Position numbers and translations under genes: made by a program. DNA of 47,825 nucleotides from Candidatus Limnocylindrales bacterium (lineage in GTDB: Bacteria > Chloroflexota > Limnocylindria > Limnocylindrales > CSP1-4), in assembly GCA_038252055.1 (NCBI GenBank), contig JBBSAS010000001.1, forward strand, positions 1 through 47,825. Direction: 5' to 3'. Of this stretch, positions 3,260-26,670 are shown piece after piece (the first letter of the stretch is position 1; every line of letters begins with the position of its first letter). Under the pieces are notes generated by a model. It searched no databases and had not been told where the DNA came from. It was given only the letters and a program-made list of their open reading frames with translations.

Positions 3260-3334
3260 TCCGGCGTAGCTCAGTGGTAGAGCGGGCGACTGTTAATCGC
3301 TTGGTCGTAGGTTCGAATCCTACCGCCGGAGCCA
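3260..3334 (+). tRNA. tRNA-Asn (anticodon GTT), CCA encoded
   Basis: Manual cloverleaf: acceptor TCCGGCG/CGCCGGA, D arm GCTC-AGTGGTA-GAGC, anticodon arm GGCGA-CTGTTAA-TCGCT, variable TGGTC, T arm GTAGG-TTCGAAT-CCTAC, discriminator G, CCA. Confidence 0.93.
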
Positions 3335-3347
3335 CAATCTTGCCCGA

Positions 3348-3368
3348 ATGTTACGGATTACGTAACAT
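3348..3368 (+). promoter_or_regulatory. inverted repeat ATGTTACG-N5-CGTAACAT abutting the start of the short AbiEi-like gene (candidate operator)
   Basis: 8-bp perfect arms ending 1 nt before GTG 3369 and 6 nt before ATG 3375. AbiEi-type antitoxins are known to autoregulate through inverted repeats. Confidence 0.5.
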
Positions 3369-3374
3369 GTGCGC

Positions 3375-3881
3375 ATGTCATGGGAAGACCTTCTCGCCAC
3401 TGCTGTCGCTCAACGTGGCTACTTCACGAGTGCCCAGGCCGCCGAACAAGGCATCAGTCGCCGGGCGCTGACGTGGCGTGCCACGCACGGATCGGCCGAG
3501 CGGGCAGGGTACGGACTATATCGCCTCCCGCACTGGCCGATCGACCCGAACGACGACCTCTACGCACTCCAGGCGCGGGCGCCGTTTGGGACGTTCAGCC
3601 ACGACACGGCGCTGAGTCTCCTCGGGCTGTCCGACCTCATCCCCGCCGTCATCCACTTCACCATCCCAGAGGCGTCGCGCCTCCGCTCCCGACCTGGCAT
3701 CCGGCTCCATCGCTCGCGCCACCACGCCGGGACCGACCGGATCCTGCGTGACGGGCTGTGGGTCAGCACCGCTCGCCGGGCGCTGCTCGAGTCGGCCCGC
3801 AGCGGAGCTGATCCGGATCAGCTGCTCGCCGCCGCCCGGGAGGCCAAGGAGCGGGCGATGCTGACGTGCACACAAGACTGA
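3375..3881 (+). CDS. AbiEi_4-like antitoxin-domain protein (short, no adjacent toxin of its own)
   Basis: ORF 3369..3881. N-terminal wHTH-like MSWEDLLATAVAQRGYFTSAQAAEQGISRRALTWRATHGSAERAGYGLYRL, then FSHDTALSLLGL, as in AbiEi N-terminal domain proteins. Confidence 0.65.
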   Translation: MSWEDLLATAVAQRGYFTSAQAAEQGISRRALTWRATHGSAERAGYGLYRLPHWPIDPNDDLYALQARAPFGTFSHDTALSLLGLSDLIPAVIHFTIPEASRLRSRPGIRLHRSRHHAGTDRILRDGLWVSTARRALLESARSGADPDQLLAAAREAKERAMLTCTQD

Positions 3882-3901
3882 AGTCGGGTGAAACTAGCTT
3901 G

Positions 3902-3930
3902 CCTATCGTATCTCGTGGCGATACGATAGG
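3902..3930 (+). promoter_or_regulatory. inverted repeat CCTATCGTATC-N7-GATACGATAGG overlapping the RBS of abiEi (candidate operator)
   Basis: 11-bp perfect arms. The right arm overlaps AGGAG just upstream of ATG 3934. Confidence 0.55.
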
Positions 3931-3933
3931 AGC

Positions 3934-4719
3934 ATGAGTTTCACGCCGGACTGGGTCGACGCGCTCGCTTTCCGCGGTCGGTTCGTGTTCACGCTGGATG
4001 ATGCCGCGAAGGTTGCGGGCACGACGCCGGCCGCGGCCAAGCTCTCGATCCACCGGGCAGCGAGCGACGGGGCGCTGTTCTCGCCCGCCCGCGGGCTGTG
4101 GGTCATCGTGCCCGTCGAGTACCGCGCCGAAGGAGTCCCGCCCTGGCGCAGCTTCCTCGATCCCATGCTCCGGCGCGAGCGGCGGGCCTACTACGTCGGG
4201 CTCCTGACGGCCGCAGCCGAGCACGGCGCGTCCGGTCAGGCGGCGCAGGAAGTCCAGGTCGTCGTGGACCGGCCCCGCGCCACGATCGAGGCCGGCCGGA
4301 TGCGGATTGCGTTCATCACACGCCGCGACGCGGCACGTGCCCCGGTCCGGGAGACGGTCGCCACCACGGGGCGGATCCCCATATCCACACCCGCGATGAC
4401 AGCACTCGACCTCGTGGCGTACCCCCGCCGCGCCGGCGGGTGGGGGAATGTCGTCTCGGTGCTCGCCGACTTGCGCGACGAGATCACGCCCAACGACATG
4501 GGCGCCGTGGTCGCGATGCCGTCGGCCACATCGGGCGCGCAGCGTCTCGGGTTTCTGCTCGAGCGCCTCGGCACATCACCCGACGTCACGGCGCCGCTCA
4601 CCGCTTGCCTCGAAGCGAGGTCCACGACGTTCGTTCCCCTCGACCCCGCGGCGGAGCGGACCGGCACGCGGGACTCCCGCTGGCGCGTGATCGAGAACGT
4701 CGAGGTCGAACCCGACTGA
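3934..4719 (+). CDS. abiEi: type IV toxin-antitoxin system antitoxin, AbiEi family
   Basis: 261 aa, the size and architecture of full-length AbiEi. Its stop overlaps the next start (TGATG at 4717-4721). Confidence 0.75.
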   Translation: MSFTPDWVDALAFRGRFVFTLDDAAKVAGTTPAAAKLSIHRAASDGALFSPARGLWVIVPVEYRAEGVPPWRSFLDPMLRRERRAYYVGLLTAAAEHGASGQAAQEVQVVVDRPRATIEAGRMRIAFITRRDAARAPVRETVATTGRIPISTPAMTALDLVAYPRRAGGWGNVVSVLADLRDEITPNDMGAVVAMPSATSGAQRLGFLLERLGTSPDVTAPLTACLEARSTTFVPLDPAAERTGTRDSRWRVIENVEVEPD

Positions 4720-5504
4720 TGATCCCTCGCAGCGATGTGCTGGCGTGGCGCTCGGTCGCGCCCTGGGCCGATGAGAACGACGTTGAGCAGGACCTGATCA
4801 TCACGCGGGCCGTGTTCGACATCTTCGAGGATCCGTGGCTCGCGGAGCGGCTCGCGTTCCGGGGCGGGACGGCGCTTCACCGTCTCTATCTCGCGCCGCC
4901 AGCCCGGTACTCGGAAGACATCGACCTCGTGCAGCGGATCCCGGAGGGTATCGGACCGACATTCGACCGGCTGCGCGAGCGGCTTGGCTGGATCGGCAGG
5001 ACGCGCCCGGACATCGGGCGCCAGCCGAAGATGAACTTCCACTTCGAGGCCGGCACGGGGAGCTCATCGCCAGCAAAGCGCAAGCTCAAGGTCGAGATCA
5101 ACAGCACCGAACACTTCGGCACGGTCGAGCCGGTCGAGTACCGCATCGAGCACGAGGTCCTCACCCGAACCTGCGCGATCCCGACGTACAGCCTCGAAGA
5201 GCTCCTGGGCACCAAGGTCCGCGCGCTGTACCAGCGCAAGAAGGGACGCGACCTGTTCGACCTGTGGTGGGCGAACACGCATCGCGAGCTCGACCTTGAC
5301 CGGGTGGCCGCCTACTTCCGGCGGTACATGGACCGGGAGGGGAGCAACATGCCCTCGGCGACGCAGATGCGCGCGAACCTCGATGCGAAGGCCGCGGCTG
5401 GCGTGTTCGAGGAGGTCCGCCCGCTCCTGTGGACCGACGTCGCCTACGACGCGGCCGAAGCACTGGCGTGGTTCGAGGAGTTCTTCCTCCCCTTCCTTGA
5501 GTAG
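4719..5504 (+). CDS. abiEii: nucleotidyltransferase toxin, AbiEii/AbiGii family
   Basis: MIPRSDVLAWR... with the NTase signature FRGGTALHRLYLAPPARYSEDIDLV. Translationally coupled to abiEi. Confidence 0.8.
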   Translation: MIPRSDVLAWRSVAPWADENDVEQDLIITRAVFDIFEDPWLAERLAFRGGTALHRLYLAPPARYSEDIDLVQRIPEGIGPTFDRLRERLGWIGRTRPDIGRQPKMNFHFEAGTGSSSPAKRKLKVEINSTEHFGTVEPVEYRIEHEVLTRTCAIPTYSLEELLGTKVRALYQRKKGRDLFDLWWANTHRELDLDRVAAYFRRYMDREGSNMPSATQMRANLDAKAAAGVFEEVRPLLWTDVAYDAAEALAWFEEFFLPFLE

Positions 5505-5527
5505 CGGGGCCGCGTTTTCGGGAGCGC

Positions 5528-8026
5528 GTGTCGACTCGCCCTGTGGTGCTCGTGCATCACGCCGTGAACCAACGAGGTCACGCAGGCGAGCGCTGGGCAG
5601 ACGAAGATGCGCGCGTGGACGACGACGCACGCAACCTCACCGAGCTCCGGCGCGACCTCGAGTGCCTGCGTGCCGAGAACGAGAGGCTCCGGGGGCTGCT
5701 CGGCATGGAGTCGACCGACATGCTGCGGTCTGGGTCGGAATTGCGTCCCACGGGGGCACCTGCCGTCGCCTGGGAACCTCGGCTCTTTCACGACACGCCG
5801 CCAGTCGCGTCGCAACAGCTCATCGATGCACGTTCGTCATCCGAAGCGAAGATCACGCTCTTCCGGTCGCTGTTCGCCGGACGCGAGGACGTCTATGCCG
5901 TCAGGTGGGAGAACCGACGCACCGGGAAGACCGGCTGGAGCCCGGCCGTCGTCGGCGGGTGGGCTAACGCCCGGAATCCCGACCGCGAGCATCTGCCGCT
6001 CGGCGACGGAGTCCTCGAGGCGCACCTGACCGGCCAGGTGCACGTCGGCCTGTACCCGCTCCTCCGCGGCGACACCTGCCGGCTGCTCGCGTGCGATTTC
6101 GACGGCCCGACCTGGCCCCTCGATGCCGTCGCGTACGTCGATGCCGCGCGCGCCACGGGAATTCCGGTTGCCCTGGAGCGCTCGCGATCGGGCGATGGTG
6201 CGCACGCCTGGATGTTCTTCGGCGCTCCTGTTCAGGCATCTGCCGCCCGGCGAATCGGCGCGTACCTTCTCCGGGAGGCGATGACGGTCAGGGCCGAGCT
6301 CGACCTTGCCAGCTACGATCGGATCTTCCCGGCCCAGGACTTCATGCCCAACGGATCGTTCGGCAACTTGATCGCGCTGCCGCTGCAGGGTGCTTGCCGA
6401 AAGCGCGGCACGACGGTCTTCCTCGACCCGGCCACCCTCGGCCCCTACGAGGACCAGTGGGCGTTCCTCGCCTCGCTGGGCCGAAGCTCACCCGAGGCGA
6501 TCACCTCCTTCGCCGAGTCCGTCCGCCTCGTTCCGGCTGGCCCCGACGAGCGGACGTACCGGGCACCACGCGGCCGAACCGCGCCCAACCCGCCCGCGAC
6601 CATCGAGGCCGAAGCCGGCCCGATGCTCTCGATCGACCGGATCGGAATGCCGCCTGCGCTGCTGGCGGCGCTGAAGCACCTGGCCTCGCTCCATAACCCT
6701 GCCTACTACGAGAAGGAGCGGCTGCGTCTCTCGACCTGGAAGACGCCGCGCTTCATCCGCTGCTACGGCGAGACCATCGATCGCCTGCTCCTGCCGCGAG
6801 GACTGCGCGAGGCCGCCGACGCTGTCATCGCGGAGGCGGGAAGCCGGCTCGTGGTCCGGGACGAGCGTTCTCCCCTGTCGCCCATCGATGTCCGCCTGCA
6901 GGCGACCCTGCTCTCCGGCCAGCGTGCGGCGCTCGAAGCGCTCTGCCGTCACGAGCTCGGCGTCCTCGTGGCGCCGCCCGGCGCCGGGAAGACCGTGCTC
7001 GCCTGCGGCGTGATCGCGAGGCGCGCCGTGCCGACACTCGTGATCGTCGATCGCCAACCGCTTGTGGAGCAGTGGCGGGACCGCCTTTCGGCCCACCTGG
7101 GAATCGATCGCAAGCACGTCGGCGTCATCGGTGCGGGACGCCGTCGGCCGGGCGGAGTCATCGACATCGCCATGGTCCAGTCGCTGGCCCGGCGTGAGGA
7201 TCTCGCCGAGATGACCGCGGGGTACGGGTTCGTCGTCGTCGACGAGTGCCACCATGTGCCGGCGACGACATTCGAGCGGGTGGTCCGCCAGCTCGCGGCA
7301 CCCGCGTGGCTCGGCCTGACGGCGACTCCCTACCGGCGCGACGGCCTCGAAGGGCTCATCACGATGTACTGCGGCCCCATTCGGCATCGCATGGGGCCAT
7401 CCGCGCTGGAGTCGGAGGACTTCGAGCGAGCCCTCATGGTGCACCCGACCGCCCACGCCGGACTCGTGCCGCTGGACGACGACGTTCAGGCGGCCGGATC
7501 GGCCATCCAGTCGGTGTTCCGGGGCGTCGTCGAGGACGACGAGCGCACACGCCAGATCTGCACCGACATCGCCGCCGAGGTGCGCGCTGGGCGCAACTGC
7601 CTCGCCCTCTCGCAATGGACCGGGCACGTCGCGCGGCTCGTGGAGGGCCTGCAGGCGCTTGGTATGGAGCCGCTCGTGCTGCAGGGCGGAATGGGCAAGA
7701 AGGTCCGAAGTCATGTCATGGACGAGCTGGCGACGGTGCAGCCCGGGGGAGGCGTGATCCTTGTCGCGACCGGCAGCTTCCTCGGTGAGGGCTTCGACTG
7801 CCCGCCGCTCGACACGCTCTTCCTGGCGTTCCCGATCGCCTTCAAGGGTCGGCTCGTCCAGTACGTCGGCCGCATCCTCCGCCCGGTCGACGGCAAGACG
7901 CGCGTCGAGGTTCACGACTACGTCGACGCCCGCGTGCCCGTTCTCGCCCGGATGCACGCCCGGCGTCTCCCCGCATACGCGAGCCTCGGGTTCGACGTCC
8001 GTCCGAACCAGGTGGGTCGGCACTGA
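5528..8026 (+). CDS. archaeo-eukaryotic primase (PrimPol)-like domain fused to an SF2 DEAD/DEAH-type helicase
   Basis: AEP motifs: LLACDFDGP (DxD), RSRSGDGAHAWMFF (sGxGxH), ASYDRIFPAQD (hD). Helicase motifs: PPGAGKTVLA (I), VVVDECHHV (II), LGLTATPYR (III), VQYVGRILR (VI). Starts 23 nt after the abiEii stop on the same strand. Confidence 0.8.
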   Translation: MSTRPVVLVHHAVNQRGHAGERWADEDARVDDDARNLTELRRDLECLRAENERLRGLLGMESTDMLRSGSELRPTGAPAVAWEPRLFHDTPPVASQQLIDARSSSEAKITLFRSLFAGREDVYAVRWENRRTGKTGWSPAVVGGWANARNPDREHLPLGDGVLEAHLTGQVHVGLYPLLRGDTCRLLACDFDGPTWPLDAVAYVDAARATGIPVALERSRSGDGAHAWMFFGAPVQASAARRIGAYLLREAMTVRAELDLASYDRIFPAQDFMPNGSFGNLIALPLQGACRKRGTTVFLDPATLGPYEDQWAFLASLGRSSPEAITSFAESVRLVPAGPDERTYRAPRGRTAPNPPATIEAEAGPMLSIDRIGMPPALLAALKHLASLHNPAYYEKERLRLSTWKTPRFIRCYGETIDRLLLPRGLREAADAVIAEAGSRLVVRDERSPLSPIDVRLQATLLSGQRAALEALCRHELGVLVAPPGAGKTVLACGVIARRAVPTLVIVDRQPLVEQWRDRLSAHLGIDRKHVGVIGAGRRRPGGVIDIAMVQSLARREDLAEMTAGYGFVVVDECHHVPATTFERVVRQLAAPAWLGLTATPYRRDGLEGLITMYCGPIRHRMGPSALESEDFERALMVHPTAHAGLVPLDDDVQAAGSAIQSVFRGVVEDDERTRQICTDIAAEVRAGRNCLALSQWTGHVARLVEGLQALGMEPLVLQGGMGKKVRSHVMDELATVQPGGGVILVATGSFLGEGFDCPPLDTLFLAFPIAFKGRLVQYVGRILRPVDGKTRVEVHDYVDARVPVLARMHARRLPAYASLGFDVRPNQVGRH

Positions 8027-8352
8027 TGAACCCGCGCTGGTCGGTGGGGAATGCCGCGCGCTGACCGACGGACATGATCTTGAGCGGGTGGCATCGCGGC
8101 CTCGCAGGCTTGGCTGTCCCGGCGTCGTCTCATGCTCTCCCGGCTACGAGCGCGGCCGAGGGCCTCGGCGCAGTCTCGGCATAGACGCTGAGACGGCGAG
8201 CGCCGCTGGACAACCAGCCTGCAGCTCTGGCACGCAAGCGGCGCGAGCTTCAGCCACGAGCGGGAACGGCGAGGGCGAACGAGCGTCAGCTCGCTCGTGG
8301 TCTCGCCTCGCGCAATCAGTAACCGGCCGGCACCCGCCCGCCGGAGCCACAT
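7918..8352 (-). CDS. small Arg-rich zinc-ribbon-like protein, paralogue copy 1 (CxxC...CxDC)
   Basis: ATG at 8352 gives MWLRRAGAGRLLIARGETTSEL...ACQSCRLVVQRRSPSQRLCRDCAEALGRARSRE. It aligns without gaps to the copy at 14879-15130, with mostly synonymous differences in the RSPxQRxCxDCA block. The 3' extent is doubtful because it runs 109 nt into the convergent helicase gene. Confidence 0.35.
   Translation of the reverse strand: MWLRRAGAGRLLIARGETTSELTLVRPRRSRSWLKLAPLACQSCRLVVQRRSPSQRLCRDCAEALGRARSRESMRRRRDSQACEAAMPPAQDHVRRSARGIPHRPARVHQCRPTWFGRTSNPRLAYAGRRRACIRARTGTRAST
8305..8350. repeat. 46-bp perfect direct repeat, copy 1 (GCCTCGCGCAATCAGTAACCGGCCGGCACCCGCCCGCCGGAGCCAC)
   Basis: Identical to 15083-15128, and the flanks diverge immediately. 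Its last 13 nt equal 3323-3335 (tRNA-Asn 3' end plus 1). Confidence 0.9.
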
Positions 8353-8867
8353 CCTGTCGTTGACTTCCAAAGGCTTGTAGCCCAGGCCGGGGTCACGATC
8401 CACACGACGACGCGCCCGCTCCGCGATGCGGATGTCGTTTCCCGTCGCGGCGTCCAGCTCACCGCGCCGGCCCGCACGATCGTCGGGTCCGGGACCTGAT
8501 CGAGGCCGCGGTCGCCGGGGAGCCGGCATGAGGTATACGTCGGCGCCGGCCTTCCGCCGGGCCCCGAGCGGCGCCTGGTCGCGATCAGCGGGGCCACGGG
8601 GCGGTCGCTGGTCCGTCTGCGCGAGGAGGTCGCCTTCGATCGGCTGCTCGGCCGCCTTGTGGCAACTGCCCCAGACCGCTGGCTGCTGAATCGAGCGCAC
8701 CGGCGCTCTCGACCGCGTCGGCGACGGCGCGGCAGTTCCTTCTCCAACGTGGGCTGGGGCGGCGCATCCACCGCGGGCCAATCCGCGCGCGACCGATCGG
8801 CGAATCGTCGTCCTCTCGACGTCGTCGTCGTTGGGATCCAGCGCTCGCCCTGGCCGCAGCCCGTGAC

Positions 8868-8909
8868 ATGACCGAACGTCATGACGCGGCACGGGTGGGC
8901 CGGCACACT
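8868..8909 (+). promoter_or_regulatory. palindromic box module A (degenerate box ATGACCGAACGTCATGAC + N18 + CACACT)
   Basis: Member of the 8-copy family. Points at the hypothetical gene starting at 9020. Confidence 0.5.
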
Positions 8910-9019
8910 CGCGTCCACGCCCCGATCCGGGGATGCGATACGTGCGTCGTCTCGCGAGGCATTCGACCGATGGCCAGGCAGAAGCAGGGTAGAACCAGTT
9001 TCATGAGGATCCCCATCTG

Positions 9020-9436
9020 ATGCCGAGATTGCCCCGCCTCAACCGACTGGCAGCCCTCGCCGCGTTGCCGGCTGTGGGCGGGGTCCTCTCATCGACCGCG
9101 CGATCCGAGACCGCTCGAGACCTCGTGCGCAGAGGGGTGCGCGATCCGCGTGGTCTCGCCCGGTATCTGGCCCACCCTGCGACATCCATCGACCTGGTGC
9201 GACGAGCGAGCCAAGATCCCTCCGTGCGCGAACTGGTTAAGGCCGGTCTCCTGTTCACGCCCATTCGCTACTGGGCGATCGGTCAGGCCGCCATCTGGAG
9301 CGCCCGGAAGGTCGTCCGCCGCCCGCCCCGGGGCAGCCCCGCGGGACCACAGGTCCGGCCCGCTGTCCGGAATGTCACGCCGCCAGAGCGAACCGCAACG
9401 TTGAACCGTACTGACATCGGTGGGGGCTCTGAATGA
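9020..9436 (+). CDS. hypothetical protein
   Basis: ORF track. GAGGA lies 9 nt upstream of the ATG, codon usage is plausible, and I recognise no family. Confidence 0.45.
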   Translation: MPRLPRLNRLAALAALPAVGGVLSSTARSETARDLVRRGVRDPRGLARYLAHPATSIDLVRRASQDPSVRELVKAGLLFTPIRYWAIGQAAIWSARKVVRRPPRGSPAGPQVRPAVRNVTPPERTATLNRTDIGGGSE

Positions 9437-9695
9437 TCGGACTTCATCCGGCCTCGGTGGTCGCCCGTAACTGATGGTGGGCCCGCTCGGATGACGGACG
9501 AGGCTGTGAACGAATCCTGATCTGAAACGGTGAGGCCCTGACAGGTGACGGCCCCGGACACCTCGGCATGGTCACCGCGATCTTGAGATCAACCCGATCA
9601 CCCGCGCACCACGAGCGTCGGCGACACCCCACGCCGCGCCAACCCGCTGATCGCAGGCAAGCCCCGAAGGCGGCGCGTGCGGTGGCTCCGAGGCG

Positions 9696-9737
9696 ATGAC
9701 GAACCGTCATGACGCGGCGGTGTCGGGCCAACACACT
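9696..9737 (+). promoter_or_regulatory. palindromic box module B (ATGACGAACCGTCATGAC + N18 + CACACT)
   Basis: One mismatch to the consensus box. Points at the DUF5661-like gene. Confidence 0.55.
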
Positions 9738-9838
9738 GGCATCATGGTCCGTCCCTCGGGGACCCGGGAGGTCGCGTTTGAATGCGACCCGCACGTCGAT
9801 GCGCCACCGCCGGTCCCACGCAGCCGAAGGAGAATGTA

Positions 9839-10135
9839 GTGGGCACTGTCGATCTGGCCGCCAAGAAGGATTTCACGACCGATGAGGCGCGCGTCATCGC
9901 GGAGGAGCTCAAGATCGATTTCGAGGCCCTCGGGTGCGACCTCGACCAGTTCCGGATGGGGCTCGGCGTCGAGCTCGAACACGGGTCCCGCGACCCGGAG
10001 ACCGACGTCAGCCGCGACGATCCGATCGTCACCGGCAAGATCGCGCTCGCCCACCTGACGGAGTACCCGGACTACTACACGCGCCTGGCCGTCCTGGAAC
10101 GCGAGGCGGCTGCCCACAGGAAGGCGCAGAAGTAG
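9839..10135 (+). CDS. DUF5661-like small protein
   Basis: GTG 9839 preceded by GAAGGAGA. The sequence ...VELEHGSRDPETDVSRDDPIVTGKIALAHLTEYPDYYTRLAVLE resembles the family I recall as DUF5661 (from memory). Confidence 0.6.
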   Translation: MGTVDLAAKKDFTTDEARVIAEELKIDFEALGCDLDQFRMGLGVELEHGSRDPETDVSRDDPIVTGKIALAHLTEYPDYYTRLAVLEREAAAHRKAQK

Positions 10136-10136
10136 C

Positions 10137-10346
10137 GTGCGCGAAGATTCGCGACCGGCATGTATTGGTGGGCTGACGGCACGCTCGGGTTCGCGAGACG
10201 GCACGGACTTCAAGGACCAGGTCGGGAACGCCGGAGATGAGGCGCGCAAGGACCTCGGGAACCTGGGCGATGACGTCCGCACCGCGGGCCGTGAGCCGGA
10301 AGGTCCTCGGGACGACCCGGCCACGACGCCCGAGCGGCCGGCGTGA
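10137..10346 (+). CDS. small hydrophilic protein (start uncertain)
   Basis: The distal two thirds have about 88% third-position GC (DGTDFKDQVGNAGDEARKDLGNLGDDVRTAGRE...). It loosely resembles small general-stress proteins. The proximal part and the start codon are weak. Confidence 0.3.
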   Translation: MREDSRPACIGGLTARSGSRDGTDFKDQVGNAGDEARKDLGNLGDDVRTAGREPEGPRDDPATTPERPA

Positions 10347-10378
10347 AGCCGTCAACACGGACCCAAGTCGGAGATAGC

Positions 10379-10579
10379 ATGCCGTCAGAACCGCCTCAGG
10401 TCATCGTCATCAAGAAGGGCGACGACCACGGCTGCATCATTACCTTGCTCCTGGCGATCATCGCCTGGCCGCTCGCGGTCTTGTACCTCGTCATTCGAGC
10501 GGTGAAGTGGGTGATCGGGACAGGGATCGACTGGCTGACCCTGGGACCGCTTCGTCGTCGGCGCCGTCCGCGGTACTGA
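10379..10579 (+). CDS. small membrane protein (66 aa)
   Basis: ATG 10379 with GGAGA 4 nt upstream (short spacing). MPSEPPQVIVIKKGDDHGCIITLLLAIIAWPLAVLYLVIRAVKWVIG... has one or two TM helices and an RRRRRPRY tail. Confidence 0.55.
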   Translation: MPSEPPQVIVIKKGDDHGCIITLLLAIIAWPLAVLYLVIRAVKWVIGTGIDWLTLGPLRRRRRPRY

Positions 10580-10605
10580 TGGCACCGGGCTGAGCCGATG
10601 CCGGT

Positions 10606-11715
10606 TCACCCAGCAGCTGATCCCTGCCGGCCCGACGATGCCCGGGATGACCGCGCTGGGACCGGCGCCGTCTCGAGGAGATGGATGAGCTCGAGCTCCT
10701 CGCGCCTGTCGGCTGCGACCCCGAGCCCATGTCCGCCCTTCGTCGCTCGTCGGCGGGAGAGTGCCCCCGCGACGAATGCATCCATGACCCTCGGTGCGAT
10801 GTAGCTCTCGCGGCTGACTGCCGGCGTGTTGCCGAGCGCCTCGGCGACGAGCTTGGTCGAGCGCTTCATCGATCGGCGGATGGCGGGCTCCGATGACTCG
10901 ACAGGCGACCGGAGCGCTCGAAACGCGAGCAGCGTCCCCGCCCACGTCCGGTAGTCCTTCGCGCTGATGTCTGCTCCAGCCGTGGCGCGCAGGTACGCGT
11001 TCACGTCGGCCGAGTCGATCGGATGTGGCTCGCCAAGCTCGTCGACATACTCGAACAGCTCCTGGCCGGGCAGGTCCTGGCACCTGGCGACGATGCTCGC
11101 GAGACGCCGGTCACGGATCCCCACCTCGTGCAGTCGACCTCCCTTGCCCCGAAAGCGGAACTGGAGGCTCGTACCGCTCACCACGACGTGCCGGTTGCGA
11201 AGTGTCGTCAACCCGAACGAGCGATTGGTCCGAGCGTACTCCTCGTTCCCGACCCGGAGATAGGTGGTGTCGAGGAGTCGAACGACCGTGGCGACGACCT
11301 TGTCCTTCGTCAGGCCGGGCCGGCCCAGGTCGCGCGCGACACGGCGCCGGATCGCCGGCAGCGACCGGCCGAACGTCGACAGCCGGGCGAACTTCGAGCT
11401 GTCGCGGGCCGCCCGGAATCGCTCGTGGTAGCGGTACTGCTTGCGTCCTCGAGCGTCGCGCCCCACGGCCTGCAGGTGACCGGATGCGTCGCGGCACACC
11501 CAGACGTCAATCCAGGCGGGCGGGATGGCGAGCGCTCGGATCCGGGCGAGCACCTCGGGATCGTGGATGGGCTCACCGTCGGGCGCGAGGTACCGAAACC
11601 CTCGCCCTGCACGGACGCGCCGGAGACCCGGCTGTCGGTCGCTGGAGAATCGCAGGTCATCTGGAGGGCGGACCAGCTCGGGGGATGCGTTGCTCACTCG
11701 CGCCCGCCACCCCAA
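10606..11715 (-). CDS. DNA topoisomerase IB (poxvirus-like bacterial TopIB)
   Basis: Family-typical blocks: PPAWIDVWVC, GRDARGRKQYRYH, FGLTTLRNRHV, FRFRGKGG, DYRTWAGT, and the catalytic-Tyr region SRESYIAP. Confidence 0.8.
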   Translation of the reverse strand: MGWRARVSNASPELVRPPDDLRFSSDRQPGLRRVRAGRGFRYLAPDGEPIHDPEVLARIRALAIPPAWIDVWVCRDASGHLQAVGRDARGRKQYRYHERFRAARDSSKFARLSTFGRSLPAIRRRVARDLGRPGLTKDKVVATVVRLLDTTYLRVGNEEYARTNRSFGLTTLRNRHVVVSGTSLQFRFRGKGGRLHEVGIRDRRLASIVARCQDLPGQELFEYVDELGEPHPIDSADVNAYLRATAGADISAKDYRTWAGTLLAFRALRSPVESSEPAIRRSMKRSTKLVAEALGNTPAVSRESYIAPRVMDAFVAGALSRRRATKGGHGLGVAADRREELELIHLLETAPVPARSSRASSGRQGSAAG

Positions 11716-11817
11716 GCCTGCCTCAGGCGCGCGGCCAGCCCAGGCTTCGCCGGCCGGCCGACCGCGACGAGGCGGCCGGGTCTATCGCGGCCCAGGCCAA
11801 CGCCCATGCGAAGGCAG

Positions 11818-12294
11818 TCAGGTCGCTGGCGAAGCTGCCGTGTCCGGTGCGGCATGAGCTGATGGTCCTCGGTCACGACGTGCTCGCAGCGCACGAGGTG
11901 CAACGGGTCGCGCCTGGCTGATGACGATGGCGCGGGCGAGAAGCTCCTCGGGCGAGAAGGGCATCGTCAGGATGTCGTCGACGCCGAGATCGAAGGCCCG
12001 CAACTTCGTCTTGAGGCTACTCCATCGGGTGAGCCCGAGGACCGGCGTCCCGCTCCGCTTGAGGCTGTTCGAGGCTCCCAGCAACTTGAGCAGCGCCCTG
12101 CTGTCGTCGTGGTCCATGTCGACCACGGACATGTTGGGCGACCACTGGGCCACGATCGCCTTCGCCTCGGCGAGGTTGCTCGCAGCCCGGACGACAAAGG
12201 GGCCGAGAGTGAGCGTCAGCGTGATGAGGCCTACGGCGAGAGGGCGATCGTGGAGCACGAGCACCCGGCGTGCTTCGACTGACGGTGCGCTCAC
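11818..12294 (-). CDS. receiver-domain-only, 3'-truncated paralogue of the atypical OmpR-family regulator at 26939-27721 (possibly a pseudogene)
   Basis: GTG 12294 gives VSAPSVEARRVLVLHDRPLAVGLITLTL...DDILTMPFSPEELLARAIV. It matches the other copy at roughly 85% by eye at nucleotide level. Homology stops near 11900-11925, and the wHTH output domain is missing. Confidence 0.5.
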   Translation of the reverse strand: MSAPSVEARRVLVLHDRPLAVGLITLTLTLGPFVVRAASNLAEAKAIVAQWSPNMSVVDMDHDDSRALLKLLGASNSLKRSGTPVLGLTRWSSLKTKLRAFDLGVDDILTMPFSPEELLARAIVISQARPVAPRALRARRDRGPSAHAAPDTAASPAT

Positions 12295-12472
12295 CTGATG
12301 TGTCCCATCCTCACACGAGGTGGGCTGCCGCCGTGAGTCCGAGCGCCGCGCCGGCCACCGCGACGATGGGGACGAGAAGTGCCAGCAGCGGTGACGTCGC
12401 CGAGACCGCGAGCATGGATGGCATCGTCGGTCGTGACCTCGATATCGACCTGGTGAGCGATCAACCGGCGCC

Positions 12473-12514
12473 AGTGTTTCGTCTCGAGGCTGCTGTGTCA
12501 TGACGGTCCGTCAT
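12473..12514 (-). promoter_or_regulatory. palindromic box module C (perfect box + N18 + AACACT)
   Basis: Points at the truncated regulator gene (start 12294). Confidence 0.6.
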
Positions 12515-12671
12515 CGGAGGGCTGCGAGTGGTTGTTTGGGGACGGGACCTCGCGGCGCCTCAGCGTGATCTCTTTGTGACGGAAGCGGCACGATCCACCT
12601 CCATGAAGAAGGCTTCGACGTCAAGGGCCGCGATCAAGCCGCGACGTCCTCGGGTCGCGATGCCGGGCGTC

Positions 12672-12713
12672 ATGACGGACCGTCATGACGGACCGACGGT
12701 GGGCCGAGATACT
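12672..12713 (+). promoter_or_regulatory. palindromic box module D (perfect box + N18 + GATACT)
   Basis: Points at the 29-aa peptide gene and the Zn peptidase. Confidence 0.6.
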
Positions 12714-12819
12714 GGCATTCGCCAAGGCATCCTCGCGGGGAGGCAGCACGCGCACCAGCGCGATCCGCGCCCCGACGCGACGGCTCAACGGCCTTGCCAG
12801 TCCCGAATAGGAGATCGTG

Positions 12820-12909
12820 ATGAACGCAAGAAGCGGTGGCATTGGGATCATCGGCGTGATCGTCATCGTCGTGGTGATCCTCTTCCTGGTCGGCGTCATC
12901 AAGGTGTGA
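12820..12909 (+). CDS. 29-aa hydrophobic mini-protein
   Basis: MNARSGGIGIIGVIVIVVVILFLVGVIKV. AGGAGA lies 5 nt upstream of the ATG, and third positions are GC-rich. Below the ORF-track size cut-off. Confidence 0.5.
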   Translation: MNARSGGIGIIGVIVIVVVILFLVGVIKV

Positions 12910-13029
12910 GTCCCAGGGTTGAGTGCGTCCTCGCTCACCCTGAGATCACCCGATTCCGGTCCGCGCCTCGATCGCGCCGATTGATCGTTGGATCGAGGCA
13001 TCGTGTGGCGCCCGCGGGAGGCTCGCGAG

Positions 13030-13923
13030 ATGTCGTTCAACCCGGGCGCGAAGCTCGATCCATCGCAGGTCGAGGACGTCCGCGGGTCGCGGGTCGGGGG
13101 GCGCGGCCTGGCCGCCGGCGGCGGTGGGATCGCGATCATCGTGACCCTCGTGTGGGTCCTCCTGGGTGGCAGCCCGACGACCGGCGGGACACTGGGCAGC
13201 CTGGTCGACCAGACGATCGGTGGCGGCGCTGGCGAGCCCGGGCCCGCCAGCAGCGCCCTGGCCAACGAGTGCAAGACCGGGGCCGACGCCAACGCCGGAG
13301 AGGACTGCCGGATCGTCGGCTACGTCAACAGCATCCAGGCCTACTGGACTGACGAGTTCGCCGCCAGGGATCAGCGCTACGTCGGGGCCAGGACCCGCTT
13401 CTTCACCGAGCAGATCAGCACCGGCTGCGGCGTCGCGTCGTCGGCCAGCGGTCCGTTCTACTGCCCGAGCGACACCTACGTCTACATCGATCTTGGGTTC
13501 TTCGACGAGCTGCGCTCGACGTTCGGCGCCCAGGGAGGCCCGTTCGCGCAGGCCTACATCCTCGCCCACGAGTACGGGCACCACGTCCAGGATCTTGGCG
13601 GAACGCTGTCAGGCGGGACCAGCCAGGAAGGGCAGGCCGGGCAGTCGGTCCGGACCGAGCTCCAGGCCGACTGCTACGCCGGCGTCTGGGCGAGCCACGC
13701 GGCCGCGACGGGCTACCTCGTGAAGCTCACGGACGCGGAGATCGCCGATGCCCTTGATGCGGCGGCCGCCGTTGGCGACGACCGGATCCAGCAGGAGATG
13801 CAGGGCCAGGTCAACCCAGAGACTTGGACGCATGGCTCGTCCGCCCAGCGCCAGAAATGGTTCACGGTCGGCTACCAGACGGGGTCGCCGGACCATTGCG
13901 ACACGTTCAGCGGCAACCCCTGA
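13030..13923 (+). CDS. neutral zinc metallopeptidase (YpfJ family)
   Basis: [19 protein letters not shown] start, one TM segment, and the HExxH motif [10 protein letters not shown]. The C-terminal part is family-like. Confidence 0.8.
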
Positions 13924-14024
13924 GTCCAGGACGGACGCAGCCCTGGATGCTCTTTGGTGCGCCACGTTGTTCGTGGCCGGATCCCGCTGCACTGGGGGAG
14001 CGGACGATCGGGCGGCCGCTGAAC

Positions 14025-14099
14025 ATGGTCGGATGGATCACGACCGGCGTGATGTGCCTGGCCGCGATCGGCCTCATCGTGACGACGATCCCAGGGTAG
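14025..14099 (+). CDS. 24-aa hydrophobic mini-ORF (tentative)
   Basis: MVGWITTGVMCLAAIGLIVTTIPG has about 90% third-position GC, but no convincing RBS. Confidence 0.25.
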   Translation: MVGWITTGVMCLAAIGLIVTTIPG

Positions 14100-14363
14100 A
14101 CCTTCTCCACCTCGCGCCGGGACGGCGAGCGGACGACAAGCAGACCCGCGGTGGGCACCAAAGAGAACGCCCGAAGGAACCGCGATCACTAGTTGCTTCA
14201 GCCAATGTAAACACCGGCCGAATCACTAGATGTTCGAAGCCCCTTCGAGCGACTGTATAGTAGCGCCGGCCTGCGCGGAGCGTCAAGTGCCAATCGGCAC
14301 AGCGCGGAGTTGTAACGCTGGCCCTGGGAACTGTCCCTGATCGCGCCCAGCGTCGAGGCGACG

Positions 14364-14549
14364 ATGTCGGTCCTCGGGAGCGTGGCGGCCGGATGCGTGC
14401 TCGACTTCGGGGCGGCCTTGGGGGTCGGGGGTGGGGTGGGCGCTGATCGAGGTCAGGGCCGCGACGAGCAAGAGGTGATCCGCCCTGGGCCCGAGACGAT
14501 GGCGATCCCACGGCGGCGAGGCGCTCGGACTTCCGAGGACCCACGTTGA
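14364..14549 (+). CDS. 61-aa small protein (tentative)
   Basis: ORF track. GAGG lies 5 nt upstream of the ATG. The N-terminal half is hydrophobic (MSVLGSVAAGCVLDFGAALGVGGGVGA) with GC-rich third positions, and the C-terminal half is weaker. Confidence 0.25.
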   Translation: MSVLGSVAAGCVLDFGAALGVGGGVGADRGQGRDEQEVIRPGPETMAIPRRRGARTSEDPR

Positions 14550-14609
14550 GAAAGCTCCTGGATCGGACGCCAGAAGCGGATGCGTCAGGGCCGCACCCCC
14601 GAGGCGCTC

Positions 14610-14702
14610 CTACCCGCGGAGACGACCGCGCCCGAAGTAGCCCAGAATGAAGAGCACGATCAGGACGATGACGACGACGATGACGATGGTTTCGAAACTC
14701 AT
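14610..14702 (-). CDS. 30-aa hydrophobic mini-protein
   Basis: MSFETIVIVVVIVLIVLFILGYFGRGRLRG. AGAGGCGG lies upstream, and the gene sits directly downstream of module E. Below the ORF-track cut-off. Confidence 0.5.
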   Translation of the reverse strand: MSFETIVIVVVIVLIVLFILGYFGRGRLRG

Positions 14703-14797
14703 GGTTGGGTGCCGCCTCTTGATCGAAGCTCGGGAAACCACGCCTATTCAGACCGGGCGCAGCACGCCGCCTTGGGGCGGCGACTCGAGCGGACCTC

Positions 14798-14839
14798 AAT
14801 GTGCGGCCTGAGGGCGATTGCGTCATGACGGTCCGTCAT
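14798..14839 (-). promoter_or_regulatory. palindromic box module E (perfect box + N18 + CACATT)
   Basis: Points at the 30-aa peptide gene (start 14702). Confidence 0.6.
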
Positions 14840-14878
14840 CCATGGACTGCTGCGTGCCCACTCGGCCCGCAGTTGCCG

Positions 14879-15130
14879 CTACCCGGCCTTCCGTGCCCGC
14901 GCGCGCTGGACGCAGACGCGACTCCGTTCGCGATTGAGCGTGCAGGCACAATCAGGGCAGTACCGCTGGGCCGGCGACCGGGGATGGGCGGACTCTCCAA
15001 GGCGCCGGCAGCGGATCTGGGACCGGCTGCGCCATTCCCGCGGTCGAGGAGGGCGGGGGAGTCGGAGTTCGGCCGCTGGGGTGCCTCGCGCAATCAGTAA
15101 CCGGCCGGCACCCGCCCGCCGGAGCCACCT
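14879..15130 (-). pseudogene. zinc-ribbon mini-gene paralogue copy 2, start codon replaced (AGG instead of ATG)
   Basis: RWLRRAGAGRLLIARGTPAAELRLPRPPRPREWRSRSQIRCRRLGESAHPRSPAQRYCPDCACTLNRERSRVCVQRARARKAG*. There is no in-frame ATG/GTG/TTG upstream, and the first CxxC is degraded. Confidence 0.4.
15083..15128. repeat. 46-bp perfect direct repeat, copy 2
   Basis: Identical to 8305-8350. Confidence 0.9.
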
Positions 15131-15216
15131 GCTGGGCGGGGCTGATCCACGAGTACGAAATCGCCGCGTGACGACTCGGCTATTGGCACCCCACGCGGTA
15201 TCGGGACAGCTCTCCC

Positions 15217-15483
15217 TCAGCGGCGGAGAAGACCACGCGAACCGGTCGCGAGATGCACCACGAAGACGACCGCGATCGCGCCGAGCGTGGCGATCACGAT
15301 GCTCTCGATGTTGATCCCATCGACGGTGCCCATCTTGAGCACGGTCGCGGCGACGTACCCGCCCACGAGGCCGCCGACGATGCCGAGAACGACCATCATC
15401 AGCAGGCCCTCACGTGCGCGCATGACCTTGCTGGCCAGGAAGCCGGCGATGGCGCCGACGACGATCCAGGAGATGAAGCCCAT
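15217..15483 (-). CDS. GlsB/YeaQ/YmgE-family stress-response membrane protein
   Basis: MGFISWIVVGAIAGFLASKVM...GIVGGLVGG, the typical transglycosylase-associated family pattern. GGAAGGAA is the RBS. Confidence 0.8.
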   Translation of the reverse strand: MGFISWIVVGAIAGFLASKVMRAREGLLMMVVLGIVGGLVGGYVAATVLKMGTVDGINIESIVIATLGAIAVVFVVHLATGSRGLLRR

Positions 15484-15587
15484 TGCAGGCGTTCCTTCCG
15501 TGACGCGCGGCCCACCCTGGGCCGACGCGGTCCGCGGACGAGGCCCCGTCCGCCGAGGGACCGCGACCACGCGGTCAGGTGCTGGGG

Positions 15588-16022
15588 TCAGGCCGGCTCG
15601 CGCCGGAAGATCCCGACGGCCCAGATCACGATCAGCTCGAGGACCGTCCAGCCGATGAATGCCAGGATGGCGGCGAGATCGAGCACCGAACCGCCCTTCG
15701 CGAGGTAGTCCTGGTTCAGGATGCCGTTGAACGGCGCGATGAAGACCTGGCTGACATCCAGGATGCCCCTGACGAGCGCGTTGCCCGTGCGGGCATCGAG
15801 GAGGAGCAGGACGATCCGCAGCCCGATGACGATCTGGATGAGCCCGAACACCAAGACGATGATCCGGCGGGTCAGTTCCGAGCCGCCGGGGCCTGGCCGC
15901 GTGATCTGCCGGCTGTCCGTCCGGGCCGACTCCTGGACCGGGGCCGCTGGCTGCGTCGCCTGGACCGGGGCCGCCGGGGACCCTTGGGTGTCGACCGTAC
16001 GGTCGACGTGGTCGATGGGCAT
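15588..16022 (-). CDS. YggT-family membrane protein with a disordered N-terminus
   Basis: ATG 16022 preceded by AAGGAGA. The C-terminal half RIIVLVFGLIQIVIGLRIVLLLLDA...VFIAPFNGIL...LAAILAFIGWTVLELI is YggT-like. Confidence 0.7.
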   Translation of the reverse strand: MPIDHVDRTVDTQGSPAAPVQATQPAAPVQESARTDSRQITRPGPGGSELTRRIIVLVFGLIQIVIGLRIVLLLLDARTGNALVRGILDVSQVFIAPFNGILNQDYLAKGGSVLDLAAILAFIGWTVLELIVIWAVGIFRREPA

Positions 16023-16177
16023 GACGTCTCCTTGTCCGCTGCGGCAGCCGTCAGCGGCGAACTCCGCCTGGAGCGGGCTCACGGGTCACAGGCCGCCGCC
16101 GCCGTTCGTCGGCTGACCCCGATGCGTGCTATCTGATCTAGTTACGCCGCGCGCGATGACTTCGCAGGCGTGACAGC

Positions 16178-16219
16178 ACTGTGTGCCAAGCAACCCTGTG
16201 CGTCATGACGGTCCGTCAT
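16178..16219 (-). promoter_or_regulatory. palindromic box module F (perfect box + N18 + CACAGT)
   Basis: Points at the yggT-like/glsB-like pair. Confidence 0.6.
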
Positions 16220-16382
16220 CTGCCCGGCCACCACGACCTGATGGCGGGATCGGACCGCGGCGACGTACCGCGCATTGAACGAGCCGCGGTCAGGCTCGCC
16301 GGGCGTCATGCCGGGCCCCTGCGCGCGCGGCTCCGCGACGGGCCCGCCAACCGAACGTCAGTCCTTGACCGACCTCTCAATA

Positions 16383-19300: not shown

Positions 19301-19826
19301 GGCGGGAGCAGACGAGGTACCCGAAGTGGGCGTCCTCGAGGATCGTGTGGTCGATGTACTGGCTCGTGTACAGCTCGCTGCTTCGAACGGCGGCCTCCTG
19401 GGCGAGGCCGAGATCCTGGGCGAGGACGGCATCGACGGACCGGGGCCTCGACGCGTTGTTGACGATCCGGATCGTCCAGAACCAGTCGGATCGTCTCGCG
19501 GCCAGGCGGAGCGTGCACGAGTAGCGCAGCCCGTCGTGGGTCCCCTCCCAGCACGCCGCGTCGGCAGTCGTCCGAAGGCGGCCACCTGCCGGTCCGAGCA
19601 ACGGCGCCCACGCGACCCGCCCGGCGCGGTGGGTTCGCAGGTAGATGTTGCCCAGCCCGCCCTCGACCGGGCTGCCGAGGACCTGGTTGACCAGGATCTC
19701 GCCGTGACGGATGGCGTGGACGGCGCCGTTGTCCAGCAGCTGGAACACGAGCCCGCGCTCGTTCTTCAGCTCCACTCCGACGGGGCCGTGGCCAGCCCGA
19801 ATGCGGCGCCTCGCGCGTGCAGTCAC
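16383..19826 (-). CDS. GH94-like glycan phosphorylase (cellobiose/1,2-beta-oligoglucan phosphorylase superfamily), 1147 aa
   Basis: Only this frame gives non-shadow protein sequence. Size and sequence style match about 1100-aa GH94/COG3459 enzymes. Catalytic residues not verified. Confidence 0.65.
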   Translation of the reverse strand: MTARARRRIRAGHGPVGVELKNERGLVFQLLDNGAVHAIRHGEILVNQVLGSPVEGGLGNIYLRTHRAGRVAWAPLLGPAGGRLRTTADAACWEGTHDGLRYSCTLRLAARRSDWFWTIRIVNNASRPRSVDAVLAQDLGLAQEAAVRSSELYTSQYIDHTILEDAHFGYLVCSRQNLSQGGTHPWLMHGCLGGSVGFLTDGFQLYGLDYKATNMPAALARRMLPNRRYQYELALPTLQSRRIRVRPGEAAEITFFGAYLADHAGASGPGDAREARAAARTFRRLPPEATATAPIPCAAGVFDAPTLFASRDLSGAELERHFGSEWRHVEERDGRLLSFFHGRQAHVVLRAKELLVERPTGHILRSGRDMLPNDDILSTTAWMFGVFASQLAVGNTSFNKILSVCRNPLNVLKASGQRIFARTDRGLELLGVPSAFEMDASSARWVYQDGEHTIVVRAWTALDDPAFFLEVGVEAGGPLALLITHDVVLGTNEYESTARVSIDEVSRRVELTPAAGGPMSREYPEATFFLVSRDADEIDTIGGDGLLYADGAGRGQAQVVVRTKPVTRFSLALTGSVVSAQRARQLADRYGREEYPQAMAQRDAADFWAGVARGAALGGVSGLRAKDVARLNDLLPWYLQNAMVHYLAPHGLEQYSGAAWGLRDACQGPVELLLATRHHAELREVLKIVYAHQYRQTGDWPQWFMFDRYRAVQSPESHGDIVHWPLKALCDYVEATGDVAVLAEEVAYTDERTMTATADTESLLAHVERQLARIEASCIPGTALVAYGHGDWEDTLQPADPAMAQRLVSSWTVELAFQTLSRFRQVCERAGEDALAGRLAGWCERIRADFDRHLVKEGVVAGLAHFAAEGIEYFLHPRDRKTGVSYRLLPMTRGMISGLLTPDQARRHLAVIGRHLSFPDGVRLMNRPMEYRGGTERYFKRAETAASFGREVGLQYVHAHIRYVEAMARVGRPEEAVAGLLVVCPVALERSVPSALPRQANCYFSSSDAAFADRYEASRQFGRIRTGAVGVKGGWRIYSSGPGIYVNQLISNVLGLREHFDDVLLDPVLPTALDGLTFDFEYESRRVRYLYHVAGKGFSPDEVRVNGHPMPGGRHSENPYRRGGMLISRDRFTDELTGGENLVEIYI

Positions 19827-21712: not shown

Positions 21713-21719
21713 GCCCGCC

Positions 21720-23258: not shown

Positions 23259-23310
23259 GGCGAACCTCCATGTGGCGGAGCGCCCAGGCGCCCCTCGATC
23301 GGATGACGGA

Positions 23311-24186: not shown

Positions 24187-24199
24187 CGAGCCACCTCCC

Positions 24200-25138: not shown

Positions 25139-25139
25139 G

Positions 25140-26474: not shown

Positions 26475-26628
26475 CTCCGTTCTCCTCTGCAGCTGGCCGC
26501 AACTCGCCCATCTGGCGAACGCGACTGGGGAAAGGCTGTGACGGCCCTAGCTAGCTAGCCTCGGTCCGTGGACCTCCTCGTTCACTCCGCCTGCCACATC
26601 CGGATGCGCTTCGAGAGGGGCACGGGCG

Positions 26629-26670
26629 AGTCTCTCGCCTCGACACGACCACGTCATGACGGTCCGTCAT
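26629..26670 (-). promoter_or_regulatory. palindromic box module G (perfect box + N18 + GAGACT)
   Basis: Points at the sugar ABC/glycoside hydrolase operon (start 26474). Confidence 0.6.

Follow-up and report, generated by a model that had tools for sequence, protein, structure and literature searches.

The window analysed here is the whole of contig JBBSAS010000001.1 (47,825 nucleotides) of Candidatus Limnocylindrales bacterium, and belongs to an assembly of 2.34 Mb in 527 contigs that is 87% complete and has a GC content of 72% (GCA_038252055.1). Near its left end lies a tRNA-Asn gene, which is followed by two stretches of DNA that each end in the same perfect 46-bp repeat. A preliminary description, made from the sequence alone, had proposed that these stretches could be tandem islands integrated at the tRNA, carrying conflict genes and no recognisable integrase. 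We interpret the two repeats as attR-type junctions that arose by integration into the 3′-end of tRNA-Asn, catalysed by a family of large serine recombinases (LSRs) that carry attP in the 3′ part of their own gene. We put the probability of this interpretation at roughly 0.8. The features on which it turns are the following, in coordinates of the window:

3260–3334, + strand: tRNA-Asn(GTT), predicted by ARAGORN and Rfam, the proposed integration target and the sole tRNA gene found in the window
3336–8350: unit 1, with two AbiEi genes, an AbiEii gene, a PrimPol-helicase gene, and the first of two small zinc-ribbon open reading frames (ORFs), here called tails
8305–8350, + strand: repeat copy 1, an attR-type junction made up of a P half-site, the inferred crossover dinucleotide CC, and the tRNA 3′-end
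8351–15128: unit 2, with an AbiEii fragment at its head, a TopIB cluster, and the second tail at its end
15083–15128, + strand: repeat copy 2, identical to copy 1 and likewise an attR-type junction

The tRNA gene and the downstream recurrence of its 3′-end were both confirmed. The 13-mer CCGCCGGAGCCAC, which comprises the last 12 nt of tRNA-Asn (3323–3334) and C3335, has exact matches at 3323–3335, 8338–8350, and 15116–15128, all on the + strand. When up to one mismatch is allowed, the window contains four matches against 0.52 expected from shuffled sequences. The two copies of the 46-mer are identical, as first described, and both end in the 13-mer. When the comparison is extended to 52 nt, 50 positions match, and the similarity fades leftwards over ~35 nt. 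Across the whole assembly, the 46-mer and each of its 16-mers are confined to the two sites in the window. The other four genome-wide matches to the 13-mer, which are located within coding sequence or a tandem peptide repeat (contigs C198 and C391), look like chance. The 46-mer is neither a dispersed repeat, an outcome that would have refuted the preliminary description, nor a chance pair.

When one genome per species was scanned, the repeat core turned up in a single further genome, the unrelated Chloroflexi metagenome-assembled genome L076, where it lies in the same orientation 3.4 kb past tRNA-Asn, with AbiEi and AbiEii genes in between. A fourth copy was found on the metagenome contig L077. 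All four copies (two in the window, one in L076, and one in L077) are identical over 41 nt, and their flanks are unrelated. A degenerate 25-nt pattern matches 44 of 401 genomes of the order, of which 43 are among the 358 genomes of the window's family and none among the 42 of its sister family; the matches fall in 17 of 44 genera. The reversed pattern, used as a control, gave ~14 single matches. Many of the pattern-positive genomes contain two or three same-strand copies that are 1–23 kb apart, and tRNA-Asn is found 0.9–16 kb upstream of the core, in the same orientation, in 12 of the ~19 genomes retrieved.

The DNA immediately to the right of the core sorts into a few recurring classes. One flank, ..CTTACTGAATCCGACCGGTTAACAC.., stands straight after tRNA-Asn in at least nine genomes (in a tenth, G271, it is cut by the contig end) and after the repeat core in five others, with the same joining base. 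The AbiEi-headed flank behaves in the same way, as it comes after tRNA-Asn in the window and in genomes G004, G014, and G016, and after a repeat core in four other genera. Such an exchange of flanks between tRNA and core is the signature of site-specific recombination at a shared core. The geometry originally suggested for the locus, an attL at tRNA-Asn followed by stacked attR sites, is borne out by this swap and by the position, constant orientation, and frequent tandem arrangement of the core downstream of the tRNA in other genomes. The tRNA followed by the ..CTTACTGAATCCGACCGGTTAACAC.. flank was also considered as a candidate empty site. This was rejected, as the translated flank is the body of an LSR and the junction is therefore an attL. 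A compact array was observed on contig G075:C3 (locus L089, reverse strand, 7441–9954). Its first unit, which is 1.3 kb long and has a kinase-like gene, follows tRNA-Asn and is separated by a core variant (..GCCGGGGCCA) from an AbiEi-headed unit of 1.06 kb; next come a second core and an AbiEi remnant that has no operator.

The ..CTTACTGAATCCGACCGGTTAACAC.. flank belongs to an LSR gene, of which it forms the 3′ part, with a zinc ribbon (..RYYRC..C..), a coiled coil, and the stretch ..RVDVDSRE.KAVAIW..GVNRSDSVS, and the frame of this gene continues through the core into a small ORF. In Pfam searches, the LSR ORFs of relatives match Resolvase, Recombinase, and Zn_ribbon_recom. Those that abut tRNA-Asn end in ..WLRR* at a TAG inside the tRNA. 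A protein-collection search returned 45 LSR relatives, and 16 of the sequences were read. Eleven of these are full-length (513–524 aa) and end exactly in ..WLRR, and three are truncated or divergent. The LSR protein P0006 continues into WLRRAGAG.. instead. In the case of P0014, the T-arm of tRNA-Asn reads CCTGCC instead of CCTACC, so that the antisense TAG is gone and the integrase continues as ..WLRRQDSNLRPSG; the length of the integrated form therefore depends on the tRNA allele of the host. Since the LSR frame runs through the core into the tail, attP lies inside the integrase gene.

On the minus strand, each copy of the core opens a conserved ORF of ~85 codons (WLRRAGAGRVLN..EIxLPxPxRSREWL..ECxRCHQVVERRSPVQRHCPxC..RSR..), the first 13–15 codons of which correspond to the 46-mer (WLRRAGAGR..). 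Conservation of this tail begins exactly at the Trp codon that is the complement of CCA. Upstream of that point, the codons differ between flank classes, and a conserved start codon is lacking. Among 28 distinct tail ORFs, diversity at the three codon positions is 0.30/0.27/0.50, and codons 5–9, which lie inside the site, vary almost solely at third positions. The tail is under protein-level constraint, that is, purifying selection. Pfam returned weak, sub-threshold zinc-finger matches for it. Both tails of the window match the LSR-tail family:

8113–8352, − strand: znr1, orphan C-terminal LSR fragment 1 (MWLRRAGAGRLLIARG...CQSC...CRDC), E 2e-18
14885–15128, − strand: znr2, orphan C-terminal LSR fragment 2, E 7e-15

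The first of them is well kept, with both CxxC pairs intact, a chance ATG at 8350–8352, and a frame that stays open past the usual stop of the family. The second is decayed, having no start codon and having lost its first CxxC pair.

These ORFs had been noted in the preliminary description as a small ORF family that complicated the island reading. Taken further, that objection would make the two copies members of a duplicated small zinc-ribbon gene family, or the conserved 5′ leader of such genes, with a coincidental match to the tRNA and no site-specific recombination. It is true that zinc-ribbon ORFs begin in both repeat copies on the minus strand, and that the copies share one origin, so that the match between the 13-mer and the tRNA is effectively a single event, with a rough chance estimate of a few per cent per 48-kb window. 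However, the ORF family is never found with a start codon of its own, its conservation starts precisely at the codon opposite CCA, and it forms the in-frame continuation of the LSR gene. Such a gene family would also not account for a core that lies downstream of tRNA-Asn in 12 genomes and for flanks that swap between tRNA and repeat. We consider this explanation highly improbable, and the small ORFs are instead the detached C-terminal piece of the LSR.

No match to the tyrosine recombinase family PF00589, to the resolvase family PF00239, or to rve/rve_3 was found in any frame of the contig. The original remark that the locus has no recognisable recombinase therefore stands for the contig itself, while the enzyme responsible can be recognised from relatives as an LSR. 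An intact cognate LSR was not found in the viral contigs searched, and the relatives examined yielded no complete reference element in which both ends and an intact integrase are present. On the 42-kb contig of locus L181, an intact LSR gene adjoins tRNA-Asn, and no copy of the tail occurs within the 11.5 kb up to the contig end.

Seven junctions between tail and LSR body in relatives show dyad symmetry at 16–21 of 30 positions around one centre, compared with 11–14 at the next-best centres. The symmetric site consists of an inner and an outer block (GGATTCAGTA...TACTGAATCC) about an asymmetric CC, which is formed by the first two bases of the block common to the tRNA. The copies in the window have the left (P) half only and reach 10–12 of 30 positions, as expected of attR. 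In copy 1, the outer motif CGCAATCAGTAA is located at 8311–8322, the inner motif extends up to 8338, and the tRNA 3′-end GCCGGAGCCA occupies 8340–8349. We infer from this layout that the crossover dinucleotide is CC, at 3323–3324 in the tRNA and at 8338–8339 in copy 1. The 41–46-mer would then be composed of one P half-site of ~30 nt, the CC at the crossover, and 10 nt that rebuild the end of the tRNA, and both of its boundaries would therefore be accounted for.

An alternative explanation is set at the RNA level, according to which the core is a mimic of the tRNA-Asn acceptor stem (hairpin CCGGC-C-GGC-ACCC-GCC-C-GCCGG, then AGCCA) and not a DNA site, although such a function could coexist with an att role. 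A hairpin that ends in the 3′ strand of the tRNA acceptor plus CCA is indeed predicted in all copies. Yet no Rfam family matches the core, no compensatory changes are seen among its copies, and the folding z-scores are unremarkable for two of the four. Variation within the core tracks the codon positions of the opposite strand, and dyad symmetry is itself a requirement of LSR sites. An RNA function in place of an att site is very unlikely.

Ordinary islands of tyrosine integrases (P4-like) could in principle leave a similar picture if their integrase genes had been deleted and the 13-mer were a shortened attR. Islands of the tyrosine type do use tRNA-Asn in this order, as in genomes G037 (Phage_integrase gene, 31–45-nt repeat) and G012 (48-nt repeat). 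Those islands, however, repeat 31–54 nt of the tRNA, as opposed to 12–13 nt in the window. PF00589 is absent from the contig and from five arrays of relatives, and two of the genomes that contain these arrays have just two tyrosine recombinases in all. The junction, moreover, shows symmetry of the LSR type and sits within an LSR gene. For these reasons, we give a tyrosine-integrase origin hardly any credence.

The right flank of copy 2 raises a further alternative, namely that both repeats were left behind by an IS481-family transposase gene, as pieces of its 3′-end, or by the end of an insertion sequence (IS), and that the interval is a decayed composite transposon. With one frameshift (an extra G), 15129–15171 reads LLGG(G)LIHEYEIAA* (LLGGLIHEYEIAA*), similar to the C-terminal tail of an IS481-type transposase on contig C138. 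Copy 2 together with its right flank reads ..ARRSH LLGG(fs)LIHEYEIAA*, which resembles the tail ..RRRDLLGGLIHEYHGLAA* of that rve_3 protein, and in L077 the N-terminus of an IS481 transposase adjoins the core. The likeness nevertheless extends over no more than 13 codons, on the right of the 46-mer, copy 1 does not show it, and no rve/rve_3 domain was detected in the contig. Genome and metagenome scans found no full-length IS with the 41-nt core in the + frame of its transposase gene. The 46-mer is explained on the other strand, and in another frame, by at least 28 conserved LSR-tail ORFs, and for the IS pieces the best reading is that they inserted next to the junction at a later time. The reading of the 46-mer as an IS481 tail was dropped because of this conserved opposite-strand frame, and a transposon origin is scarcely credible. 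What may be a short IS remnant abutting copy 2 is 15129–15171, to judge from its translation.

An LSR family with attP in the 3′ part of its own gene thus remains our preferred explanation of the 46-mers. It is directly supported by the junction sequences and the flank swap, by the LSR frame across the core, by the protein-coding constraint on the tail, and by the dyad symmetry of intact sites. In the mechanism that we propose, an excised circle, or a unit lying behind the tail of another unit, would encode the full-length LSR, with body and tail. The full-length enzyme would pair the intact site with tRNA-Asn, strands would be exchanged at CC, and the tRNA 3′-end would be rebuilt from element DNA. 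After integration, the LSR body would stay beside the tRNA, ending in ..WLRR* at the TAG within it, and the zinc-ribbon tail of ~85 aa would end up at the far end of the element. The far ends would be all that survives in this genome, as two tails with their att cores.

Units 1 and 2 would accordingly be regarded as stacked, integrase-less islands, which are either similar to cis-mobilizable elements (CIMEs) that are mobilised in trans or are remnants that have lost their integrase. The attL and attR sites of the preliminary description are confirmed to the extent that there are two right halves of attR type; an integrase body is lacking, so the islands are integrase-less or decayed. Junctions of tail, core, and LSR body are found inside arrays in genomes G249, G417, and G237, and these imply that a tRNA occupied by the left end of an older element is still open to the entry of new ones. 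A more speculative extension, which we think is possible and still rather unlikely, is that the zinc-ribbon tail serves as an integration-state switch. The LSR would then be full-length only when excised or behind an orphan tail, the integrated copy would be tail-less, and orphan tails with their att cores would be reusable for the capture, stacking, and perhaps re-mobilisation of units at tRNA-Asn, in the manner of a serine-integrase cassette array.

Several observations weigh against our interpretation. The LSR body is absent both from the window, where PF00239 has no match, and from the whole 87%-complete assembly as searched by tblastn with LSRs of the family. In the window, tRNA-Asn is followed by the AbiEi flank and not by an LSR gene, so that a standard matching attL is absent and the origin of LSR-less units with exact junctions is unexplained. 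The 46-mer is also absent, with up to three mismatches allowed, from all 41 other genomes of the genus, and the variant present in the window's genome (G000) is rare. The two 46-mers are 100% identical although the remainder of the two tails has diverged, which therefore calls for strong constraint on the site or for gene conversion. The right flank of copy 2 matches none of the flank classes seen after tRNA-Asn in relatives. Finally, a palindromic box, GTCATGACGGTCCGTCATGAC (core ATGACnnnnnGTCAT), has nine copies genome-wide, eight of which lie between 8868 and 28011 and front genes on both sides of copy 2. This set of boxes (8868–28025) looks like a local regulon, on sequence grounds. Unit 2 shares this operator box with the DNA past its right end and is therefore not cleanly separable into foreign versus native.

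The extent of the variable region was assessed against relatives of the same genus, the best of which is ~80% identical in the flank. All of these relatives have the rhodanese gene and tRNA-Asn; past the tRNA, their DNA varies between genomes over 0.2–15 kb, and shared core blocks then begin. In 16 genus genomes that were searched for an empty site, tRNA-Asn is followed by unrelated DNA, and none of the genus relatives carries the genes of the window in the same order, as it would if the locus were simply colinear. The first block that the window has in common with its relatives begins at ~32264, so that the variable stretch (3336–32263) measures 29 kb and not 12 kb. Composition was compared with random windows of the same genome, as GC content and as the tetranucleotide correlation (r) to the rest of the genome:

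3336–8350 (unit 1): GC 0.693, r 0.968; at the ~5th percentile in GC and slightly above it in r
8351–15128 (unit 2): GC 0.683, r 0.968; under the 5th percentile on both
15129–32263: GC 0.701, r 0.988; not marked atypical
core past 32264: GC 0.724, r 0.995; not marked atypical

The island boundaries first proposed (3336–15128) are thus supported by composition, since both units are atypical and the DNA past 15128 is nearer to the genome norm, but not by the comparison with the genus, in which variability runs on to ~32264. The AbiEi protein with which unit 1 opens (3375–3881) shares 77–89% identity across genera, compared with 54–61% for the adjacent core rhodanese, which hints that AbiEi-headed units may move horizontally. 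The cargo genes of unit 2 form a cluster at other loci in relatives. Other inserts at tRNA-Asn were observed on contig G012:C8 (L034), where 10.4 kb is bounded by a 48-nt tRNA repeat and contains no Phage_integrase match, and on contig G037:C77 (L045), where a 7.4-kb insert with a 31–45-nt repeat carries a tyrosine integrase.

Pfam searches agreed with the gene calls of the preliminary description (AbiEi, AbiEi/AbiEii, AEP-helicase, TopIB, and regulator). Besides the tails, the two units and the DNA beyond them contain the following:

3336–3374, + strand: left end of unit 1, the 'class a' flank, consisting of CAATC, TTGCCCG, and the inverted repeat TGTTACGGATTACGTAACA (3349–3367), which is likely the AbiEi operator/promoter
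3375–3881, + strand: AbiEi-type antitoxin/regulator with an AbiEi_4 winged helix-turn-helix domain (Pfam)
3934–4719, + strand: second AbiEi antitoxin, with an AbiEi_1 C-terminal domain
4716–5504, + strand: AbiEii nucleotidyltransferase toxin
5528–8026, + strand: fusion of an AEP primase (PrimPol, TOTE-type) with an SF2 helicase, cargo of unit 1
8500–8871, + strand: AbiEii gene fragment (N-terminal part only), head of unit 2
9782–10135, + strand: DUF5661 gene, cargo of unit 2
10606–11715, − strand: TopIB, cargo of unit 2
11818–12501, − strand: receiver-domain gene, cargo of unit 2
12988–13923, + strand: YpfJ-type Zn peptidase, cargo of unit 2
14580–14828, + strand: small conserved gene, cargo of unit 2
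15129–15171, + strand: right flank of copy 2, putative IS remnant
15172–32263: non-syntenic remainder, with small membrane genes, a GH94-like glycan operon, and an OmpR-type regulator

The PrimPol-helicase gene is absent from the equivalent place in a relative of the same genus. On that contig (G045:C37:1-765, locus L060), the 3′-end of AbiEii is 99% identical to that of the window and is joined straight to a stretch corresponding to window positions 7965–8129 (90%), which is followed by one similar to 12302–12517 (70%). Because of these joints, the PrimPol-helicase gene and the stretch with repeat copy 1 are seen as indels between recently related DNAs. Within the receiver-domain gene of unit 2, 11919–12218 is a partial copy, 76% identical, of the OmpR-type regulator gene at 26939–27730 (at 27331–27630); the OmpR-type regulator family has several copies per genome among relatives. 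The stretch upstream of the Zn-peptidase gene (12810–12910) is 84–90% identical in many genus genomes, above its surroundings.

The closest described system is that of the Dehalococcoides ssrA islands with DsiB (PMC3146451). There, the gene of the LSR DsiB adjoins attL and lies on the reverse strand; its ORF extends over attL/attP, with a stop that is unclear and depends on the integration state (McMurdie et al. 2011, PMC3146451). About half of these islands are without an integration module and were proposed to be CIMEs gathered by accretion, or fixed remnants (PMC3146451). The two systems have in common tandem islands past a tRNA-like gene, with short direct repeats of the target 3′-end bounding each island and with some islands lacking an integration module, as well as an LSR gene (in our case, in relatives) that lies next to attL on the reverse strand with its ORF across attL/attP. 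They differ in the target, which is tRNA-Asn here and not ssrA, in the length of the shared repeat (12–13 nt, not 20), and in that the window itself is without an LSR. The part of DsiB beyond the crossover was found to be divergent, and its function was doubted by the authors (PMC3146451), whereas the corresponding piece here is a conserved zinc-ribbon domain of ~85 aa under purifying selection. The six-gene Dehalococcoides module (DsiB, DsiA, RecF-like, ParB, Mom, and an embedded tRNA) had no counterpart in Pfam scans of the ORFs submitted from the units of the window. The host may be of the same phylum as Dehalococcoides, its relative L076 being labelled Chloroflexi.

Integrase genes that extend across attP are also known from IntP/IntX of the myxophage Mx8 and from the archaeal 'suicidal' integrases of the SSV1 type (PMC4383910; PMC8371274). 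As in those systems, attP lies within the integrase ORF, integration alters or removes the C-terminal part, and the other piece of the gene is found at the far junction. Those enzymes are tyrosine recombinases of a phage or of archaeal viruses, whereas the present enzyme is a bacterial LSR on small cargo islands. In the integration-dependent immunity of the BPs-group mycobacteriophages, attP lies in a gene whose product, once integration into a tRNA gene has taken place, is cut short by a stop formed at attL (Broussard et al. 2013, as described in PMC8092301). As far as that description goes, free and integrated forms likewise differ at the C-terminus, but the split gene is that of a repressor, from which a degradation tag is lost, and a tyrosine recombinase acts as the integrase. 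The units of the window resemble CIMEs, in the outline cited in PMC3146451, as att-flanked units without a recombinase of their own that are in tandem at one target, with the caveat that the left junction here joins the tRNA to a flank that is not P′ and that mobilisation is putative. They differ from CIMEs, as outlined there, in carrying a fragment of a recombinase gene in their right end.

With phiC31, Bxb1, A118, and the SprA protein of SPbeta, the LSRs of relatives share the set of Resolvase, Recombinase, and Zn_ribbon_recom domains and dyad-symmetric sites of ~50 bp with an asymmetric central dinucleotide. Large serine integrases of phages and of integrative and conjugative elements usually target protein-coding genes and have attP outside the int ORF. 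Canonical LSRs avoid recombination with a site that already bears a P′-type half, and stacking beside the tRNA would need exactly that. No description of this tRNA-Asn LSR family was found in the literature searched. What is new is the tRNA-Asn target, the LSR family, and its conserved zinc-ribbon tail under purifying selection.

For this window, the message is modest, namely that its two islands are fixed or trans-dependent and that it holds no active enzyme. The apparent puzzle of an island without an integrase is explained, as an LSR of this type leaves merely a small ORF that cannot be annotated at the far junction. Such islands will escape island finders that are keyed to recombinase genes or to long tRNA repeats. 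The family is widespread in the order (44 of the 401 genomes sampled) and stacks defence and toxin-antitoxin cargo at one tRNA. Its tail is conserved as a protein, yet it is expected to be translated solely in fusion with the integrase, from excised or tandem copies of the element. This provides a concrete example, open to testing, of a serine integrase with a form that is set by the integration state. Such a state-dependent form bears on the control of directionality in enzymes that find wide use in genome engineering.

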